64,000 bases of DNA, taken from the NCBI GenBank assembly GCA_934183255.1, contig CAKPSD010000001.1, positions 517,728 to 581,727 on the forward strand. The letters are read 5' to 3'. The notes beneath the pieces were generated by a model. The model saw nothing but the letters and a program-made list of their open reading frames with translations. It had not been told where the DNA came from and ran no database searches. The translations under genes were made by a program, and so were the position numbers. Source of the stretch: an uncultured Bacilli bacterium (lineage in GTDB: Bacteria; Bacillota_I; Bacilli_A; RFN20; DUOF01). Each line of letters begins with the position of its first letter. Position 1 is the stretch's first letter. Below are positions 3,057 through 59,752 of the stretch, in pieces.

Positions 3057-3464
3057 TTATTTATTAACTTCTTTTTTAATATCTTCCACCTTTAATCTAA
3101 TCATTTTAACAAGTGAGAAAACATCTAACTTTTTACCTGAAGCAAAATTAGGAACAGGAATGTATTTGTCATCAACATATTGACATTCTTCTAACTCAAA
3201 TCCAATAATTTTCTCTTCACTTCCATCTGCAAATTTCACTTCTTTATAATCCATTTCTCTACATTTATTTGCATTAGTAACATTACAATAATAACTAATC
3301 CAACCTCTCTTATCTACTACCTTATCATAGTACTTAGTTAAAAAATTATTTTGTCTTTTAGAAGTAACTCCGCTTTTAGGAGTACATACTGCTAATGGTA
3401 TTGTATTATTGTCTATATAATCATCCAAATCCTCAACATTTATTACATCTACTAATATTTTCAT
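3057..3464 (-). CDS. hypothetical protein
   Basis: 135-aa ORF in an operon position between tcdA and fhs. No recognisable motif. Confidence 0.4.
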   Translation of the reverse strand: MKILVDVINVEDLDDYIDNNTIPLAVCTPKSGVTSKRQNNFLTKYYDKVVDKRGWISYYCNVTNANKCREMDYKEVKFADGSEEKIIGFELEECQYVDDKYIPVPNFASGKKLDVFSLVKMIRLKVEDIKKEVNK

Positions 3465-3550
3465 AAGTTATCAACCCCTGATATTAAAATAATAACATTT
3501 ACTATTTTTTGGTGCAACAATTTAACTAAGAATAGTCTTGTTTTTATTTT

Positions 3551-4279
3551 TTATTGCAAACATTTTTTTAATATATAGTATGCACATAGCATTCCCGCTG
3601 CTGATGGTACAAACATAATACTTGCAGGTGGGCATGTTTCTTTCATCGTTTTGCCATTTACATTTACTATAGTTTGTTGTTTTTTTGGTAATTCATTTGA
3701 AAACACAACATTAATTTTTTTCATATCTTTTAATCTATTATCTTTTCTTACTAATTCTCTAAGTTTTTTACTTACTGGATCATAATTAGTTTTATCTAAA
3801 GTAGTAATAACTAATTTAGTTAAATCCATTCTATTCCCCATACCTGTACTACTTATAAAATCAATATTATTATCTAAACATAATTTTATTAACTCCCATT
3901 TGCAACTAATTGTATCTATTGCATCTACTACAAAATCAGGCTTTTCTTCTATAATTGTATTTATTGTTTCTTTATTTAAAAACATTGAATACTCTTTTAC
4001 TTTAGCATTAGGATTTATATCTAATACTCTTTCTTTTAAAACACTTGTTTTTTCTTTATTTAAAGTAGATTGTAATGCTATTATTTGCCTATTTATATTA
4101 GTAATATCAACTTTATCTTTATCTATCAAAACAAAGTTACTAACCCCTAATCTAGCAAGAGATTCTACTGCATATGATCCTACTCCACCTACTCCTACTA
4201 CACACACTTTTATTAGAGAAAGTTTTTTACAAACTTCTTCTCCAAAATAAAGTTCATTTCTTTCAAATCTATTATCCAT
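3551..4279 (-). CDS. tcdA: ThiF/MoeB-family tRNA threonylcarbamoyladenosine dehydratase (TcdA/CsdL-like)
   Basis: Rossmann motif VVGVGGVGS. Length of 242 aa and overall pattern fit the TcdA subgroup of E1-like enzymes. Confidence 0.7.
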   Translation of the reverse strand: MDNRFERNELYFGEEVCKKLSLIKVCVVGVGGVGSYAVESLARLGVSNFVLIDKDKVDITNINRQIIALQSTLNKEKTSVLKERVLDINPNAKVKEYSMFLNKETINTIIEEKPDFVVDAIDTISCKWELIKLCLDNNIDFISSTGMGNRMDLTKLVITTLDKTNYDPVSKKLRELVRKDNRLKDMKKINVVFSNELPKKQQTIVNVNGKTMKETCPPASIMFVPSAAGMLCAYYILKKCLQ

Positions 4280-5189
4280 TATAATCCCTCACATAATCTT
4301 TAACTTCTTTAACAGTTTCATCAAAGTTATCTAAATTAACATTAAACCATTTTGTATTGAACTGGTTATTAAACCAAGTATATTGCCTTTTAGCATAATT
4401 TCTAGACTTTTTCTTTATTAGATTAATTGCTTCATCTAGAGTAATTTCTCCTCTAAAATAAGAAAATAATTCTTTGTATCCTATTGCTTGTAATGATTTA
4501 TAATTATTATCTTTATATTTATTATATAAATTTCTAGCTTCCCCTACTAAACCATCTTTAATCATTATATCTACTCGTTCATTAATTCTTTCATATAAGA
4601 CATCTCTAGGCAAAGTTAACCCAATAAAGCAAATATCATATATTGGTTTATGATCTTGATTTTCTAAAATATTGCTTTTAGTAGTCTTACTCTTTTCAAT
4701 AATATTAAGCGCTCTAACTACTCTTTTTCTATTATTAACATGTAACTTTAAAGCTTCTTTTTCATCTTTTTCCATTAATAATTTATATACTTCTTCATTA
4801 GATAAATCTTCATATAAATTATCCTTACTCTCTTCATCATTAAACTTATAATCATATAATGCTGCTTTAAGATACAAACCACTACCACCTACAATAATTG
4901 GCAATAAATTAGCATCATTAAACTCTTTTATCTTATTTCTAACATCATTTTGATAATCATAAATTGTATAATTATCTTCAATATTTTTAATATCTAATAA
5001 ATGATGTCTAATATTTTCTTTTTCTTCTTCCTTTATTTTAGCACTTCCAATATTTAATTCTTTATATACTTGCACACTATCTCCATTAATTATTTCACTA
5101 TGAAAATACTTAGCAAGTTCAATACTAAGTTTTGTTTTACCTACTCCTGTAGGTCCTACAATAACTATTACTTTATTCATCTTAAACAA
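4272..5189 (-). CDS. miaA: tRNA dimethylallyltransferase
   Basis: P-loop VIVGPTGVGKT at the N-terminus. 305 aa. Overlaps the mutL end, matching the classic mutL-miaA linkage. Confidence 0.9.
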   Translation of the reverse strand: MFKMNKVIVIVGPTGVGKTKLSIELAKYFHSEIINGDSVQVYKELNIGSAKIKEEEKENIRHHLLDIKNIEDNYTIYDYQNDVRNKIKEFNDANLLPIIVGGSGLYLKAALYDYKFNDEESKDNLYEDLSNEEVYKLLMEKDEKEALKLHVNNRKRVVRALNIIEKSKTTKSNILENQDHKPIYDICFIGLTLPRDVLYERINERVDIMIKDGLVGEARNLYNKYKDNNYKSLQAIGYKELFSYFRGEITLDEAINLIKKKSRNYAKRQYTWFNNQFNTKWFNVNLDNFDETVKEVKDYVRDYNG

Positions 5190-34274: not shown

Positions 34275-34372
34275 TCCTTTTTATATAGTATAACATTATT
34301 TTTTAGGTAATAGTGCATTTTTTACACTTTAGCAATAATTATTAATATTATGTAATGAATAGGAGTGAAATT

Positions 34373-35125
34373 ATGGATAATAACATTTTAAATATGCAAA
34401 ATATATCCAAAAGTTTTTTTACTCTTGAAGGTGAAGTTGAAGTATTAAAAGATATTAATTTAGAATTAAAAGAAGGAGAAAAGATAGCAATTGTAGGTCC
34501 TAGTGGATGTGGTAAATCTACTATTCTCAATTTAATAAGTGGGCTTATAAAACCTAGTAAAGGTACTATTGATCTACATAAAAATGTTGGTTATATGTTT
34601 CAAAAGGATAATTTACTTGAATGGAGAAATATATATAAAAATATTACTATTGGACTAGAAATAAGAAAACAAATGAATGATACACAAAAAGAAATAATAA
34701 ATGAGTTATTAAAAAAATATGGTTTATATGAATTTAGAAATAGTTATCCTAGTGAATTAAGTGGTGGTATGAGGCAAAGAGTAGCTTTAATCAGAACACT
34801 TGTTTTAAATCCAGATATATTATTACTCGATGAACCATTTAGCGCCTTAGATGCTCAAACAAAAATTGCTGTAAATGATGATGTATATGATATTGTAACA
34901 AAAGAAAATAAAAGTGTTATTTTAGTAACTCATGACATATCTGAAGCAATTGCTTTTAGTGATAAAGTAATTGTTTTAACAAGTAGACCTGCAAGTGTAA
35001 AAAAAGTATATGAAATTAAATTTGATGATTTAGAAAAAAGAACTCCTCTTAGTTCAAGAAAACATGCCTTATTTAAAGACTATTTTGACAAGATATGGAG
35101 GGATTTAGATGAATTTAAAAAGTGA
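34373..35125 (+). CDS. ABC transporter ATP-binding protein (NitT/TauT family)
   Basis: Walker A GPSGCGKST, signature LSGGMRQR and Walker B LLLDEPFSALD. I placed the start at the ATG at 34373, 8 nt after GGAG. Confidence 0.85.
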   Translation: MDNNILNMQNISKSFFTLEGEVEVLKDINLELKEGEKIAIVGPSGCGKSTILNLISGLIKPSKGTIDLHKNVGYMFQKDNLLEWRNIYKNITIGLEIRKQMNDTQKEIINELLKKYGLYEFRNSYPSELSGGMRQRVALIRTLVLNPDILLLDEPFSALDAQTKIAVNDDVYDIVTKENKSVILVTHDISEAIAFSDKVIVLTSRPASVKKVYEIKFDDLEKRTPLSSRKHALFKDYFDKIWRDLDEFKK

Positions 35126-35912
35126 TGATGCTAAAAAATATATAAAGAAACAAAAAATTAATAAAATAAAAATTATTTTTGCACAAATATTTATATTAAT
35201 AAGTTTCTTTTTAATATGGGAGTTATTAACAAGAAAAGAAATTATAAATAGTTTTTTAGTATCTAGCCCTAGTGAAATATTTTTATTATTAAAGAAATAT
35301 ATAGCAAGTGGTGAATTATTTTCTCACATCTACATATCAGTATATGAAACTATACTTGGATTAATAATAGGTACTGTTATAGGTATTTTTATAGCAATAA
35401 TACTTTGGTGGAGCAAAACTTTAGCTAAAATATTTGATCCATTTTTAGTAGTTTTAAATGCCCTTCCTAAAACTGCGCTTGCCCCAATATTTATAATATG
35501 GGCTGGAACAGGAGTAAAAGGAATTGTTGTAGTAGCAGTCTCCATCTCTCTTATTTTAACTGTTTTATCTGCTTACAACTATTTTAAAAATGTTGATGAA
35601 GAGAAAATAAAAATGTTAAAAAGTTTTGGTGCTAATAAATTTCAAATATTATGCAAACTTGTAATACCTTCGAATATTGTAAACATCGTTGATATTATAA
35701 AGATTAATATAGGAATGTCTTGGGTTGGAGTTATAATGGGAGAATTTATTGTTTCTAGAAGCGGTATAGGATACTTAATTGTATATGGTAGCCAAATATT
35801 TAAACTAGATTTAGTAATGATGGGAGTCTTTGTTTTGGCAATAATTGCATATGTTATGTATCAATTAGTTAATATATTAGAGAAAATATTAAAGAAGAAA
35901 TTAAGTAAATAA
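35109..35912 (+). CDS. ABC transporter permease (NitT/TauT family)
   Basis: 6-TM BPD-type permease with the EAA-like loop. Overlaps the ATPase gene. Confidence 0.8.
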   Translation: MNLKSDDAKKYIKKQKINKIKIIFAQIFILISFFLIWELLTRKEIINSFLVSSPSEIFLLLKKYIASGELFSHIYISVYETILGLIIGTVIGIFIAIILWWSKTLAKIFDPFLVVLNALPKTALAPIFIIWAGTGVKGIVVVAVSISLILTVLSAYNYFKNVDEEKIKMLKSFGANKFQILCKLVIPSNIVNIVDIIKINIGMSWVGVIMGEFIVSRSGIGYLIVYGSQIFKLDLVMMGVFVLAIIAYVMYQLVNILEKILKKKLSK

Positions 35913-35968
35913 TCACATATTTAATTTAAATTAATATTCTATTAATAGAGTAAAAGGAGAATAATTAA

Positions 35969-36991
35969 ATGAAAAAAATAAAATGTTTTTTAGCTTCTTT
36001 ACTAGCTTTTCCATTTTTACTTATAAATGGATGTAGTTGTAAAGATGATGGCTTAACTAAACTTACAGTAGCGGAAGTCACCCATTCAGTTTTCTATGCT
36101 CCTCAATATGTAGCAGATACTATGGGATTCTTTAAAGAAGAAGGGTTAAAAGTATCTTTTGTAAACACTAATGGTGCTGATAAAACAATGGCAGCTTTAT
36201 TATCTAAAGATGCTGAGATAGGTTTAATGGGTAGTGAGGCTTCAATTTATGTTTATAACGAAGGTCAAAAAGACTATGCAATTAACTTTGCTCAATTAAC
36301 TCAAAAAGATGGAAGTTTCTTAGTTTCAAGAACTAACACAAGTAACTTTGATATTTCTATGTTAAAAGGTAAAGAAATACTTGGTGGTAGACTTGCTGGT
36401 ATGCCAGAAATGGTTCTTGAATACATATTAAAAAATGCTGGATTAAATGTTGGAGTTAATGATTCTACTAAAGATGTAAATGTAAGAACAGATGTTCAAT
36501 TTGCGGCAATGGCTGGAGCTTTTACTTCAGGAGAGGGAGATTATGTTTCTTTATTTGAGCCTACTGCTTCTAGTATTGTGAAAGCAAATAAAGGATATAT
36601 AGTAGCATCTCTAGGTGAGTTATCAGGAAATATTCCTTATACTTCATATTCTACTTTAAAAAGTTATATGAATAAAAATAGTGATACTATTCAAAAATTC
36701 ACTAACGCTATATATAAAGCTCAAAAATGGGTGTATGAGCATACTGATGTAGAAGTTGCAGAGGCGATAAAATCATATTTTAGTGATTCTTCAATCGAAG
36801 ATTTAACTACTGCAGTTAAAAATTATAGATCAATTGAAGCATGGGCTAAAGATCCTACTTTAACTGTTGAATCTTTAAACAAATTAATGGATATTATCGA
36901 ACTTGCTAATCAATTAGATAAACGTGCCCCTTATGATAAAATAGTAACAACAGAATATGCAAGAAATGCTATTTCAAGTCTTAGTGAATAA
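35969..36991 (+). CDS. ABC substrate-binding lipoprotein (NMT1/THI5-like)
   Basis: Lipobox LLINGCS after a signal peptide. The SBP fold fits the NitT/TauT family. Confidence 0.8.
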   Translation: MKKIKCFLASLLAFPFLLINGCSCKDDGLTKLTVAEVTHSVFYAPQYVADTMGFFKEEGLKVSFVNTNGADKTMAALLSKDAEIGLMGSEASIYVYNEGQKDYAINFAQLTQKDGSFLVSRTNTSNFDISMLKGKEILGGRLAGMPEMVLEYILKNAGLNVGVNDSTKDVNVRTDVQFAAMAGAFTSGEGDYVSLFEPTASSIVKANKGYIVASLGELSGNIPYTSYSTLKSYMNKNSDTIQKFTNAIYKAQKWVYEHTDVEVAEAIKSYFSDSSIEDLTTAVKNYRSIEAWAKDPTLTVESLNKLMDIIELANQLDKRAPYDKIVTTEYARNAISSLSE

Positions 36992-37138: not shown

Positions 37139-37342
37139 ATGTATCAAGGAACTGTAAAATGGTTCAATTCTGAAAAAGGTTATGGATTTATCACTACTAG
37201 TGATGGTAAAGATGTATTTGCTCACTATAGTGCAATCAATGCTGAAGGTTATAAAAGTTTAACACAAGGTCAAAAAGTTAGCTTTGATATCGTTGAAGAC
37301 AATGATAGAACTAGAGCTAGTAATATAACTGTTATTGAGTAA
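37139..37342 (+). CDS. csp: cold-shock protein (CspA family)
   Basis: [15 protein letters not shown] and VFAHYSAI motifs. 67 aa. Confidence 0.92.
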
Positions 37343-37349
37343 GAACTAA

Positions 37350-37377
37350 AAAAAGGTCACTTGGACCTTTTTTTATT
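37350..37377. terminator. bidirectional rho-independent terminator
   Basis: AAAAAGGTC-ACTTG-GACCTTTTTTT. Confidence 0.7.
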
Positions 37378-37696
37378 ACTCTTTAAATATTTCTGCCATT
37401 CCTATTGCATCTTCTACAGGCAAGACAAATGATAAGGCATGAGCCTTAGTATTCATTCCAGCTTTATTACTAATAGCCTCTACTATAGCTTTTGTTTGTT
37501 CTCCCTTACAAAGAATTAAAACAATTTGTTTATCTGGTTGAATATTTAGTTTAAAGAACTTATTAGGCTCTTTAGAAGTACTTCCTCTTCCATTTATAAT
37601 AGTAGCACCTTTAGCACCTGCTTCTTTACTTGCATCCACTACATAATCACTATATCCACCATCACAAATAGTAACTATACACTCAAACTTATTCAT
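37376..37696 (-). CDS. P-II-like (GlnB-fold) small signalling protein
   Basis: 106 aa with a P-II-like pattern (…GRG…KAIVEAI…). Overlaps the upstream paralogue. Confidence 0.55.
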   Translation of the reverse strand: MNKFECIVTICDGGYSDYVVDASKEAGAKGATIINGRGSTSKEPNKFFKLNIQPDKQIVLILCKGEQTKAIVEAISNKAGMNTKAHALSFVLPVEDAIGMAEIFKE

Positions 37697-38030
37697 TTTC
37701 TATCTCCTCCTTTAAGAAATACTTTAAACTATCTAAACTAGATATACCTTTTATTGGAACTCTAAAAGCAATTGTATTCTTTAAAAATTCGCTTATTTTT
37801 ATAGCTTCCATTATCTTTGAAGAATCCTCTTCACTACAAGGATAAATAAGAATATTTTTTTTAGTTTCTCCTATTCCTAAATAATCTAATATGCTTGAAC
37901 TAGCGCTACCCATTGCATACATTAAAAAGTATTTATTTACTCCCACATTTTCTAAATATTTAGTTACTTTATTTACAATATCTCTTTCAGTAATTAATAT
38001 TGTAAATTTAAGTTTTTTATCAACTTTCAT
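37689..38030 (-). CDS. P-II-like (GlnB-fold) small protein, paralogue
   Basis: 113 aa with a similar pattern. Its start abuts the DUF1538 stop. Confidence 0.5.
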   Translation of the reverse strand: MKVDKKLKFTILITERDIVNKVTKYLENVGVNKYFLMYAMGSASSSILDYLGIGETKKNILIYPCSEEDSSKIMEAIKISEFLKNTIAFRVPIKGISSLDSLKYFLKEEIENE

Positions 38031-38032
38031 AC

Positions 38033-39520
38033 TTATACCTCCAATTCAATATATTCTTCAAATTCACGAGTTTGTTCTTCTTTACTTTGTTTCTTAAGTT
38101 TATAATTATACATAATACCTAATACTTGAATACTAATTAAAGGAGTTAAAGCAATAAAGGCTACTAAACCAAAAGCATCTAAAACCACACTATGATTTAA
38201 AGCTAAGCATGCTCCTATTGCAAATGGTAAAATAAATGTAGCTGCCATTGGTCCACTAGCCACTCCTCCTGAATCAAAAGCAATCGCAGTAAATAATTTT
38301 GGTGTAAAGAAAGTCATTATTAAAGCAATTAAATATCCAGGCAATAAAATATACATAACAGGAATATCAAAAACAATTCTAAGCATTGATAAACCAACTG
38401 CTAAAGAAACACCTAAAGCTAAACTAATAGTTAATGATTTTCTAGTAATTAAACCACTAGATATTTCCTCAACTTGTTTATTAAGAACATATACTGCTGG
38501 TTCAGCAAGTATTGTAAGTAATCCCATAATCATTCCAAGTGGTATTAAAATATTTGGATGATTACTTACTATTTCCTTACCAAGATAGTTACCAACATTA
38601 CTAAACCCATAATTAACCCCTACTAAAAATAAAACTAATCCAATAAATGTATAAACAATACTAATTAATATTTTAATTAAAGATTTTTTTGATATTTTAA
38701 GGAAAAATATTTGAAACACAATAAATAGTATTACAATTGGGCTTAATGCTATTAATACTTCTTTGCCATATTTTAAAAGACATTCAAATATACTTAATGA
38801 ACTAGAATTTAAAACATAATCTGTATTACCATTTTTAAAGAATAAACTTAAAAATAAAACTGCCACAATTGGTCCAATAGAGCATAATCCAATTAATCCA
38901 AAACTATCATCTTTTGATGTTTCTCCACCATTAACAGATGCTATTCCTACCCCTAATGCCATAATAAAAGGAACCGTTATTGGTCCTGTTGTAACACCAC
39001 CTGAATCAAATGATAATGGTATGAATTTAGATGGTATGAATATAGTTAATATAAATAATAAACCATATGATATTAATAATAATTTTGATAAGCTTAGTTT
39101 AAAAATAATTCTTAATACTGATAATGCTAAAAAGATTCCTACTCCTATTGCAACCGTAATAATCAAAGTTGTACTAGGTAAATAACTTGCTTGTTCAGCT
39201 AACACCTTTAAATCTGGTTCTGCTATAGTGATGCATGTTCCTAATAAAAAGCAAGTAAAAACTAATAAAGTTAAACTTTTATGCTTTGATAAAAATGATC
39301 CCATTTTATTACCTATAGGCATCATTGCATTATCTGCACCTAGAGTAAATAAAGACATTCCTAAAACTAATAATAATGTTCCTACTATAAAAGAAGAAAA
39401 CATACTATTATTTAATGGAGCAAGAGTAAAATGTAAAACAATTACAAGCAAAAACACTGGTAAAATTGATAAAAACGATTCTTTTATTTTTGTAAATAAC
39501 TCCTTATACATTACTATCAC
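38033..39520 (-). CDS. DUF1538-family polytopic membrane protein (two internal repeats)
   Basis: 495 aa with about 12 TM helices. Each half has the repeated FDSGGVT/ASGP motifs typical of DUF1538. Confidence 0.6.
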   Translation of the reverse strand: MIVMYKELFTKIKESFLSILPVFLLVIVLHFTLAPLNNSMFSSFIVGTLLLVLGMSLFTLGADNAMMPIGNKMGSFLSKHKSLTLLVFTCFLLGTCITIAEPDLKVLAEQASYLPSTTLIITVAIGVGIFLALSVLRIIFKLSLSKLLLISYGLLFILTIFIPSKFIPLSFDSGGVTTGPITVPFIMALGVGIASVNGGETSKDDSFGLIGLCSIGPIVAVLFLSLFFKNGNTDYVLNSSSLSIFECLLKYGKEVLIALSPIVILFIVFQIFFLKISKKSLIKILISIVYTFIGLVLFLVGVNYGFSNVGNYLGKEIVSNHPNILIPLGMIMGLLTILAEPAVYVLNKQVEEISSGLITRKSLTISLALGVSLAVGLSMLRIVFDIPVMYILLPGYLIALIMTFFTPKLFTAIAFDSGGVASGPMAATFILPFAIGACLALNHSVVLDAFGLVAFIALTPLISIQVLGIMYNYKLKKQSKEEQTREFEEYIELEV

Positions 39521-39582
39521 AACACCTTTATAATTAATATTAAATTATATGTTTTTAATAGTCAATTAATGAAGAAAACAAA

Positions 39583-39867
39583 TTAAGAGAAATAATTAAA
39601 TCCAACAGGTGCTTTCATACATTGATTATAAAAGTATTTATCATTTATATCTTTATAAGTATAGTTTTTGTATATCTTTAAATTTGCTTTTTTAGCTACA
39701 CATTCAATATAATTTATAGAATAATTAGACTTCATTTCTTCATTTTTCCATGCTGCTAACTTCTTATTTAACTTTTTTTCACTCTCACAATTAATAGAAT
39801 AATCAAATACAATATAACTATTATCTCCTACTAACTCAATAGTCCTTCCAAATATTTCTTTATCCAA
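39583..39867 (-). CDS. hypothetical protein (possible frameshifted longer gene)
   Basis: 94-aa ORF. An overlapping 44-codon ORF in another frame runs upstream to about 39960. Confidence 0.3.
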   Translation of the reverse strand: MDKEIFGRTIELVGDNSYIVFDYSINCESEKKLNKKLAAWKNEEMKSNYSINYIECVAKKANLKIYKNYTYKDINDKYFYNQCMKAPVGFNYFS

Positions 39868-42357: not shown

Positions 42358-42431
42358 TGGAGCAGGCGAGGGGAATCGAACCCCCGTAGTCAGCTTGGAA
42401 GGCTGAAGTTCTACCATTGAACTACGCCTGC
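42358..42431 (-). tRNA. tRNA-Gly (anticodon TCC)
   Basis: Manual fold: anticodon stem TCAGC/GCTGA with loop CTTCCAA. T-arm GGGGG-TTCGATT-CCCCT. Confidence 0.85.
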
Positions 42432-42473
42432 ATGTATATTTAAAGCAGTTATTCCACACACCAAGTTTTTTTT

Positions 42474-42550
42474 TGGTGACCCGTACGGGATTCGAACCCG
42501 TGAGTGCATCCTTGAGAGGGATGTGAGTTAAGCCACTTCTCCAACGGGCC
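42474..42550 (-). tRNA. tRNA-Glu (anticodon CTC)
   Basis: Manual fold: anticodon stem CATCC/GGATG with loop CTCTCAA. T-arm ACGGG-TTCGAAT-CCCGT. Confidence 0.75.
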
Positions 42551-42556
42551 TTTTAG

Positions 42557-42647
42557 TGGCGGAGCAAGAGGGACTCGAACCCTCGCACCAGTTTCCCGAT
42601 CTATATCCTTAGCAGGGATACCTCTTCACCAACTTGAGTATTGCTCC
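42557..42647 (-). tRNA. tRNA-Ser (anticodon GCT)
   Basis: Long variable arm. Anticodon stem TATCC/GGATA with loop CTGCTAA. Confidence 0.85.
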
Positions 42648-58908: not shown

Positions 58909-58984
<76 letters not shown>

Positions 58985-58987
58985 AAA

Positions 58988-59064
58988 TGGCGGTCCTGAC
59001 GGGGATCGAACCCGCGATCTTCTCCGTGACAGGGAGACATGTTAAACCACTACACCACAGAACC
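58988..59064 (-). tRNA. tRNA-Asp (GTC)
   Basis: Anticodon stem TCTCC/GGAGA with loop CTGTCAC. Discriminator G. Confidence 0.85.
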
Positions 59065-59141
<77 letters not shown>

Positions 59142-59161
59142 ATATATAAATGTAAACAAGC

Positions 59162-59252
59162 TGGCGGAGAAACAGGGATTCGAACCCTGGCGGGCCTCTC
59201 AGCCCCTACCGGTTTTCAAGACCGGACCCTTCAACCACTTGGGTATTTCTCC
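59162..59252 (-). tRNA. tRNA-Ser (TGA)
   Basis: Long variable arm. Anticodon stem CCGGT/ACCGG with loop CTTGAAA. Confidence 0.85.
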
Positions 59253-59267
59253 ATATTAATTTTTAAG

Positions 59268-59344
59268 TGGTGGACCCTGTAGGACTCGAACCTACGACCA
59301 ACCGGTTATGAGCCGGTAGCTCTAACCAACTGAGCTAAGGGTCC
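59268..59344 (-). tRNA. tRNA-Ile2 (CAT, lysidine type) or tRNA-Met
   Basis: GGACCCTTAGCTCAGTTGGTTAGAGC… with loop CTCATAA. Resembles Bacillus tRNA-Ile(LAU). Confidence 0.7.
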
Positions 59345-59351
59345 GATACAA

Positions 59352-59428
59352 TGGTAGCGGAAATAGGACTTGAACCTACGACCTGTCGGGTATGAACCGA
59401 ATGCTCTAGCCAACTGAGCTATTCCGCC
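59352..59428 (-). tRNA. elongator tRNA-Met (CAT)
   Basis: The …CGGTTCATACCCG… anticodon arm is typical of Firmicute elongator Met. Confidence 0.75.
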
Positions 59429-59439
59429 ATAAAATAAAA

Positions 59440-59515
59440 TGGTGGAGCCAAGGGGGATCGAACCCCTGACCCCCTGCGTGCAAGGCAGGTGCTCTCCCAG
59501 CTGAGCTATGACCCC
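59440..59515 (-). tRNA. tRNA-Ala (TGC)
   Basis: G3-U70 identity pair. Anticodon loop CTTGCAC. Confidence 0.85.
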
Positions 59516-59522
59516 ACTAACA

Positions 59523-59599
59523 TGGTCGGAATGACAGGATTTGAACCTGCAACCCTCTGGTCCCAAACCAGATGCACTACCAAGTTGTGCTACATTCCG
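59523..59599 (-). tRNA. tRNA-Pro (TGG)
   Basis: Anticodon stem TCTGG/CCAGA with loop TTTGGGA. Confidence 0.85.
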
Positions 59600-59677
59600 A
59601 TTACAAATGCTTAAATATAATAACAAAACACAACTAATATTTCAATACTTTTTTAAATTTTTTTAAAGTTATTGAAA

Positions 59678-59752
59678 TGGAGGTTCCTGTCGGACTCGAA
59701 CCGGCGATCATTGAGTTGCAGTCAATTGCCTTACCAACTTGGCTAAGGAACC
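59678..59752 (-). tRNA. tRNA-Cys (GCA)
   Basis: Anticodon stem ATTGA/TCAAT with loop CTGCAAC. Discriminator U73. Confidence 0.8.

Follow-up and report, generated by a model that had tools for sequence, protein, structure and literature searches.

A DUF1538 membrane protein linked to two PII-like proteins: a candidate PII-gated transporter module

Few signalling proteins are as widespread as those of the PII type, yet only a few of their transporter partners (AmtB, SbtA and, recently, Pot) are mechanistically understood. SbtB, which lacks the canonical GDGK B-loop, binds cyclic AMP, AMP, ADP, ATP and cyclic di-AMP (c-di-AMP). NifI1 and NifI2 are divergent PII paralogues with adjacent genes; together they make a hetero-oligomer that binds nitrogenase. 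On their own transporters, SbtB and GlnK work as a 'valve plug' (bioRxiv 10.1101/2023.08.10.552651). Here we describe three adjacent genes in a 64,000-nucleotide stretch of contig CAKPSD010000001.1 from an uncultured Bacilli bacterium (assembly GCA_934183255.1); we refer to this whole stretch as the window. The genes encode a membrane protein with two DUF1538 repeats and two small PII-like proteins of 113 and 106 amino acids, hereafter the A1 type and the A2 type. The only characterised DUF1538 system is UmpAB of Halomonas zhaodongensis, a Na+(Li+,K+)/H+ antiporter that was reported to be a heterodimer (PMC5484666); the UmpAB paper makes no mention of a PII partner.

The locus shares several features with SbtA-SbtB. 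A small PII-like gene lies directly 3' of the gene for a putative secondary transporter, with which it appears to be co-transcribed; as a fold match for the models of both small proteins, SbtB ranks first or close to first among the solved structures; and, like SbtB, the window's proteins lack the canonical GDGK B-loop. The differences are equally clear. The transporter here is a DUF1538 protein with no detected sequence relation to SbtA, and two PII-like paralogues, or a tandem fusion of them, take the place of the one SbtB. The small proteins end in ...EEIENE and ...EIFKE, with no Cys motif, whereas SbtB has a C-terminal redox R-loop (CGPxGC), and sequence similarity to SbtB is insignificant (E ~0.09). 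With AmtB-GlnK the locus has in common the operon logic and several properties of the A2 type, which passes the Pfam P-II threshold, has GlnK1 as its best fold match, carries a T-loop of canonical length (about 20 residues, between strands 2 and 3) and keeps the equivalent of Lys58. Unlike that system, it has no Amt protein, and G87/G89/K90 and R101/R103 are missing. By our own reading against the Escherichia coli GlnB sequence, which also supplies the residue numbering used here, the A2 type appears to lack Q39 and the Tyr51 modification motif too.

UmpAB belongs to the same Pfam family and likewise brings two homologous units of seven transmembrane segments together, as a heterodimer there and by fusion here; the window differs in having one fused gene of 492 amino acids rather than two genes, and its protein scores below the equivalog cut-offs. 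The NifI pair offers the closest parallel for two divergent PII paralogues encoded side by side, which act as a heteromeric unit in NifI and are proposed to do so here, although the NifI target is a soluble enzyme rather than a transporter and NifI keeps canonical binding of ATP and 2-oxoglutarate. The module would operate like SbtA-SbtB and AmtB-GlnK, yet belongs to neither.

We found no link in the literature between DUF1538 and PII; genome annotation shows their adjacency only implicitly. Nor did we find anything relevant on PII-like proteins in connection with antiporters, gene neighbourhoods or uncharacterised membrane proteins. The pairing is unsurprising in principle, yet uncharacterised and, as described below, widespread.

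Linkage of DUF1538 and PII-like genes across genomes

By scanning GTDB for a sequence pattern, with one genome per species and up to 600 candidate stretches, we confirmed at least 597 relatives of the transporter, of which the best 80 (46-54% identity) were kept. These 80 loci are mostly from Clostridia, with one from Breznakiella, a spirochaete, and one from the Symbiobacteriaceae. Their stop-to-stop open reading frames (ORFs) were searched with hidden Markov models of both small-protein families. Both the A1 and the A2 type were found directly downstream of the DUF1538 gene in 78 of the 80 loci; the other two run into contig ends, one of them (L005) lying at the edge and the other (L055) being cut within the second domain, so that the first domain is still visible. 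In 71 loci the two types are joined in a single ORF of about 210-280 amino acids, always with A1 before A2, and in seven each type has a gene of its own, the arrangement seen in the window. Two genes are therefore the minority state, and a tandem protein is usual. A frameshift artefact that had split a fused gene was considered as an explanation for the two-gene form and ruled out, because the split form is kept within its own clade, in 42 homologues (110-114 amino acids), and in seven GTDB species.

The same association was seen on plasmids. When PLSDB (72,556 plasmids) was searched by tblastn, the nine records that matched the transporter were the same nine that matched the A2 type, each A2 match lying downstream of the transporter gene at a distance of a few hundred bases; the correspondence is nine out of nine in both directions. 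A tblastn search of these plasmids with the 113-amino-acid protein gave no match, and the A1 type is too divergent for a search with a single sequence. The first-pass annotation had made its transporter-regulator proposal depend on finding the linkage outside this genome. It is indeed found in Clostridia, a spirochaete, the Symbiobacteriaceae and Alphaproteobacteria, and we reject chance adjacency of DUF1538 and PII-like genes.

The form of the cassette varies between lineages. In Paraclostridium and Peptoclostridium a fused DUF1538 gene is followed by a gene for a 222-amino-acid protein annotated 'P-II family nitrogen regulator', and in Chelativorans and Methylocystis two separate DUF1538 genes are followed by a single PII gene of the A2 type, encoding 112-122 amino acids (67-73 bits). 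Searched against 1.84 billion representatives, the A2-family profile matched 2243 clusters (50% identity) at E <= 1e-3, of which 1300 also reach E <= 1e-10, and two-domain proteins make up about 143 of the best 150. Judged from these sequences, DUF1538 appears to have the A2 type as its common partner in these phyla, and the A1 type looks like a diverged extra copy in Bacillota-type loci. Given the mutual adjacency in the GTDB loci and on the plasmids, we propose a dedicated subfamily of PII-like proteins that partner DUF1538. DUF1538 proteins themselves are numerous (more than 8,000 homologues were scored) and abundant in gut Clostridia.

Two side observations concern the distribution of the cassette. 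Three A2-family representatives match the profile in three stretches (P0301, 357 amino acids; P0350, 345; P0398, 340) and may be triple-domain proteins. The alphaproteobacterial module sits on conjugative or mobilizable plasmids beside insertion sequence (IS) elements and a RES toxin gene (Chelativorans 3714-5052, Methylocystis 3288-5046), a setting that suggests horizontal movement of the cassette; the first DUF1538 gene of Chelativorans is annotated as only 90 amino acids long and is probably truncated.

All-against-all clustering of the ORFs of the 80 loci revealed no other conserved neighbour. The best real cluster, an ATP-binding cassette (ABC) ATPase, occurs in nine loci, and the remainder were alternative-frame artefacts that overlie the genes of the module. 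Because a riboswitch could hint at the substrate, the window was scanned in full with Rfam, which returned tRNAs only; the same search in 15 related loci returned only one unrelated T-box and one tRNA. The lack of a conserved neighbour and of an upstream riboswitch implies that the partnership is between these proteins alone.

Folds and conserved residues of the three proteins

The membrane protein matches PF07556 (DUF1538) in two stretches that cover both of its halves (450.6 bits against a cut-off of 22.6; E 7.6e-136), which bears out the two repeats first described. The halves are 27% identical to each other (E 5e-26). Hydropathy indicates about seven hydrophobic segments in each half, giving 14 in total rather than the 12 or so transmembrane helices originally counted; UmpA and UmpB are likewise predicted to have seven transmembrane segments each (PMC5484666). 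The odd number of segments per half implies an inverted repeat, and the protein is probably a fused pseudo-heterodimer with antiparallel halves.

Two motifs, AEPD/AEPA and FDSGGVTTGP/FDSGGVASGP, occur once per half and are invariant in relatives down to 50% identity. They include the invariant acidic residues E101, D103 and D172 in one half and E340 and D416 in the other. The nearest NCBIfam equivalogs are UmpA (NF041627; 180.1 bits against a cut-off of 490) and UmpB (NF041628; 159.9 bits against 500). From these scores, the window protein is a member of the same family as UmpA and UmpB, not an equivalog of either. The view that the module is uncharacterised thus needs qualification: the family does have a characterised antiporter in UmpAB, although with scores so far from the cut-offs the substrate here may be a different one. 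Neither phmmer nor a profile search against PDB sequences found a relative of DUF1538 with a solved structure, no Pfam family other than DUF1538 was related to the protein at E <= 10, and no similarity to SbtA or to any other transporter family was detected.

Both small proteins are predicted to have the PII fold. AlphaFold2 models, built on alignments of 43 homologues for the 113-amino-acid protein and 40 for the 106-amino-acid protein, show the order beta-alpha-beta-beta-alpha-beta in each, with confidence (predicted local distance difference test, pLDDT) of 79 for A1 and 77 for A2. The loop between strands 2 and 3 has 19-20 residues in both, and the A1 model carries an extra C-terminal helix. 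When the models were compared with the PDB by Foldseek, the best match of A1 was SbtB (6mmc, E 6.8e-5), followed by TTHA0516 and CPII, and that of A2 was GlnK1 (2j9e, E 1.6e-6), followed by CPII and SbtB; the top matches of both were exclusively PII or PII-like chains, with probability 1.00. In the domain search that had been suggested as a check, DUF1538 was confirmed and A2 passed the Pfam P-II threshold narrowly (PF00543, 29.5 bits against a cut-off of 25), whereas A1 had no Pfam match. An unrelated fold for the small proteins, which would have undermined the original proposal, is thus not what the models or the A2 match indicate.

The first-pass annotation also described the two proteins, of about 110 amino acids each, as paralogues with a GlnB fold. 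The fold stands in the models; the paralogy is visible at the level of profiles only. BLASTP between the two found no match, and hhalign aligned their family profiles with an E value of 0.0012 over 93 columns. In addition, the first domain of Peptostreptococcales homologues matches the second-domain profile at 27-38 bits, and PF00543 matches both domains of the fused Peptoclostridium homologue. For these reasons we regard the two as paralogous, only remotely, on the strength of their sequences. We also considered whether either might be a PstA/DarA-type receptor for c-di-AMP. Neither had a Pfam match to the corresponding family (PF06153), and no such chain was in the top 50 Foldseek matches of either model; many Alphaproteobacteria are not known to use c-di-AMP, and the module is found in that class. 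On these grounds the assignment was rejected.

A further check suggested at the outset was whether the T-loop and the nucleotide-binding residues are retained. For this purpose A2 was aligned to GlnK structures (GlnK2 for the B-loop), and conservation was scored over 83 sequences, Alphaproteobacteria included. A2 keeps the strand-2 motif G30-(G/A)31-T32, the equivalent of G27-M28-T29, together with a Gly at the base of the T-loop, E55-K56 (K56 being the Lys58 equivalent) and Pro93. In its B-loop, however, GDGK (G87/G89/K90) aligns to KAHA, and its C-terminal segment has no Arg and hence no equivalent of R101 or R103. Read against E. coli GlnB, G37/R38/Q39 and the Tyr51 uridylylation motif also seem to be missing. 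Canonical PII proteins contact the ATP phosphates through the B-loop T-G-x-x-G-D-G-K-I-F and C-terminal R101/R103, use Q39 and K58 for 2-oxoglutarate, and are modified at Tyr51 or Ser49. A2 therefore agrees with the canonical PII (GlnB/GlnK) signature at the K58 and G27-M28-T29 equivalents alone, and falls outside that class. In A1, the T-loop motif G-[ST]-A-x3-ILDYLG is the most conserved segment of the protein (mean frequency of the top residue 0.66, against 0.38 in the core), and a Lys stands at the beginning of strand 3. The answer to the check is thus divided: the A1 T-loop is strongly conserved and A2 retains K56 and the GGT motif, but GDGK and the C-terminal arginines are lost. As we read these sequences, the effector cleft is kept but not as a canonical Mg-ATP/2-oxoglutarate site, and at least one T-loop appears to be strongly constrained, as expected of a docking loop.

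A proposed gating mechanism and its alternatives

That distant bacteria share the pairing makes it very probable that the transporter is under the control of the small proteins. Arguing by analogy with the known systems, we think it somewhat probable that the DUF1538 transporter is gated, via T-loops, by a heteromeric cytoplasmic PII-like sensor that responds to a small effector. The DUF1538 protein would be a secondary transporter, most likely one that swaps a small cation for protons. Translational coupling would set a fixed proportion of the two PII-like proteins, which would assemble as a hetero-oligomer equivalent to the tandem protein of most relatives. With its T-loops this assembly would dock on the transporter from the cytoplasmic side, and the small effector bound to it would decide whether the transporter is open or plugged, much as GlnK acts on AmtB and SbtB on SbtA. 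An adenine nucleotide is the probable effector, bound non-canonically as in SbtB, since the residues on the adenosine side are kept while the triphosphate B-loop and the C-terminal arginines are gone. The first-pass annotation had invoked the same logic, in which a P-II protein gates a transporter, as in AmtB-GlnK and SbtB-like pairs; fold and linkage support it, and from them we infer the gating itself.

Several points weigh against this mechanism. Gene layout, predicted folds, linkage, fusions and residue conservation are what the sequences show; from these, binding, gating, effector, substrate and oligomeric state are deduced. In E. coli, umpA and umpB alone, on a clone ending at umpB, conferred antiport (PMC5484666), which indicates that basal activity does not require a PII partner. 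The homotrimers AmtB and SbtA match the PII trimer, whereas UmpAB was reported as a heterodimer, making a match in symmetry uncertain. The confidence of the AlphaFold2 models is moderate (pLDDT 77-79) and that of their T-loops low. With the canonical nucleotide-binding B-loop and the C-terminal arginines absent, the effector may not be a nucleotide. The scores far below the UmpA and UmpB equivalog cut-offs mean that the substrate could differ, and the 80 loci, as the best-scoring of at least 597 matches, are biased toward Clostridia.

The substrate is a separate matter from the gating. The family relation to UmpAB and the invariant acidic residues in each half point to cation/proton exchange, an assignment that, taken alone, we hold tentatively and with less than even confidence. 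The strongest rival is that the module carries another small ion, for example bicarbonate as in SbtA-SbtB, or an organic solute, and that the activity of UmpAB in E. coli KNabc was a side activity. We consider this on the unlikely side. It would accommodate the low equivalog scores and the closer resemblance of A1 to SbtB and CPII than to other structures; moreover, the authors of the UmpAB work have used the same KNabc screen to report Na+/H+ antiport for several otherwise unrelated families. UmpAB is nevertheless the sole experimental datum for the family, the acidic residues are invariant in the conserved motifs of each half, and the DUF1538 protein has no detectable similarity to SbtA or other transporter families.

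The two small proteins could instead be obligatory structural subunits of the transporter, such as a permanent cytoplasmic cap or an assembly factor, rather than a ligand-switched regulator. The near-absolute linkage, the fixed gene order and the frequent fusion would all be expected of such subunits, the translational coupling suggests a fixed stoichiometry, and the canonical ATP-binding motifs have been lost. But UmpAB alone was active in E. coli vesicles (PMC5484666), and the known pairs of PII protein and transporter are reversible. The effector cleft is lined by the Lys58 equivalent and the GGT motif, whose conservation across phyla argues for a retained ligand site. A purely structural role is therefore unlikely.

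We regard it as quite improbable that the DUF1538 protein serves mainly to sense or to anchor at the membrane, sequestering PII-like proteins whose targets are soluble enzymes or regulators elsewhere in the cell. There are precedents: sequestration in the AmtB-GlnK pair controls DraG, and SbtB has second targets. The extra C-terminal helix in the A1 model could form a second interface. More generally, PII and SbtB proteins are reported to have several targets (bioRxiv 10.1101/2023.08.10.552651; PMC8654305). However, no other gene is kept beside the module in the 80 loci, and every A2 match on plasmids (9/9) adjoins a DUF1538 gene.

Finally, it is very improbable indeed that the small proteins are ordinary GlnB/GlnK nitrogen regulators sensing 2-oxoglutarate and ATP, with an ammonium or nitrogen-compound carrier as partner: the Prokaryotic Genome Annotation Pipeline (PGAP) does call homologues 'P-II family nitrogen regulator', and A2 passes PF00543 and has GlnK1 as its best Foldseek match, but A2 clears PF00543 by a small margin, KAHA stands in place of GDGK, R101/R103 and presumably the G37/R38/Q39 and Tyr51 motifs are absent, the membrane protein is DUF1538 and not Amt, and neither the flanks of the window's operon nor those of the 80 loci contain amtB, glnA or another nitrogen gene. 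The public label for these proteins is probably misleading.

The gated-transporter mechanism can be extended to a broader, more speculative proposal, which we put forward as a possibility somewhat short of even likelihood. DUF1538 and its dedicated PII-like subfamily may constitute a further widespread class of PII-gated transporters beside AmtB-GlnK and SbtA-SbtB, reaching from Alphaproteobacteria to gut Clostridia, and the first with a tandem or two-gene heteromer, in which one domain docks through the ILDYLG T-loop and the other senses the effector at a non-canonical site. Through such a system, cation/proton homeostasis would respond to an energy or second-messenger signal. The linkage already ties a PII subfamily of about 2,200 clusters (50% identity) to one poorly known transporter family; should the pairing work as proposed, it would give DUF1538 a physiological context. 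Ion/proton exchange would then be added to the processes under 'valve plug' control, and the module would provide a natural tandem or heteromeric PII protein whose halves have diverged in role.

Operon layout and neighbouring genes

The coordinates of the operon and its surroundings are collected in Table 1. The three minus-strand genes were confirmed in the ORF listing, with the abutting and overlapping ends that had been described for them. Two nucleotides separate the TAA of the DUF1538 gene from the ATG of the 113-amino-acid gene, and the stop of the latter overlaps the ATG of the 106-amino-acid gene by 8 nucleotides (ATGAATAA). Reading the DNA directly, we found a Shine-Dalgarno sequence for each small gene: GGAGGT, six bases 5' of the ATG, for the first and AAGGAGG, just 5' of the start, for the second. 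The 2-nucleotide gap, the 8-nucleotide overlap, the internal ribosome-binding sites, the single promoter-like site and the single terminator argue that the three genes are, as predicted from sequence, one compact, translationally coupled and self-contained operon.

The true start of the DUF1538 gene is probably the ATG at 39511, giving 492 amino acids, because close homologues all have this length and because the spacing of the ribosome-binding site 5' of the gene, AAGGTG, suits that ATG and not the GTG at 39520. The promoter-like site is a consensus match only, and this AT-rich region shows no enrichment in such sites (28 found, 21.8 expected; the G+C content of the window is about 27%). The terminator hairpin is common to the operon and to a convergent cold-shock gene.

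Table 1. Positions of the operon, its predicted signals and other features in the window
Feature	Position	Strand	Basis and remarks
Membrane protein gene, two DUF1538 repeats	38033-39520	-	ORF listing; 495 amino acids from the GTG at 39520
First PII-like gene, A1 type, 113 amino acids	37689-38030	-	ORF listing; no Pfam match, PII fold by model
Second PII-like gene, A2 type, 106 amino acids	37376-37696	-	ORF listing; PF00543, 29.5 bits against a cut-off of 25
Promoter-like site TTGACT-17 nt-TAATAT, upstream of the DUF1538 gene	39537-39565	-	Consensus scan, 9/12 matches
Bidirectional hairpin terminator, perfect 12-pair stem with A/T runs around it	37347-37375	both	T runs on both strands
Cold-shock gene	37139-37342	+	Convergent with the operon
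ABC transporter operon (ATPase, permease, NMT1-type binding lipoprotein)	34355-36991	+	Adjoins the cold-shock gene
Methyltransferase remnant, ORF of 94 amino acids from TTG	39583-39867	-	Just upstream of the operon
Three tRNAs	42361-42647	-	Rfam
Nine tRNAs	58912-59752	-	Rfam
Single tRNAs	28523; 54797		Rfam

The synteny of the operon is the same in a related contig from a gut metagenome, whose DUF1538 protein is 97% identical to that of the window. The two differ upstream of the operon. Here the window keeps, as a short ORF, only the 3' part of an LCM-family methyltransferase gene. The related contig carries this gene intact (284 amino acids), and the ORF matches residues 178-274 of its product with 86% identity. 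That contig also has a gene for an HTH_3 regulator, which the window lacks. Together, the remnant and the missing regulator gene indicate that the window strain has undergone a deletion in the interval from the PAP2 gene to the operon. On the other side, the order of the ABC transporter operon and the cold-shock gene is also found in the related contig; it is not kept beside the module in other genomes. The tRNAs of the window form two clusters, on the same strand as the operon, with two further tRNAs standing singly.

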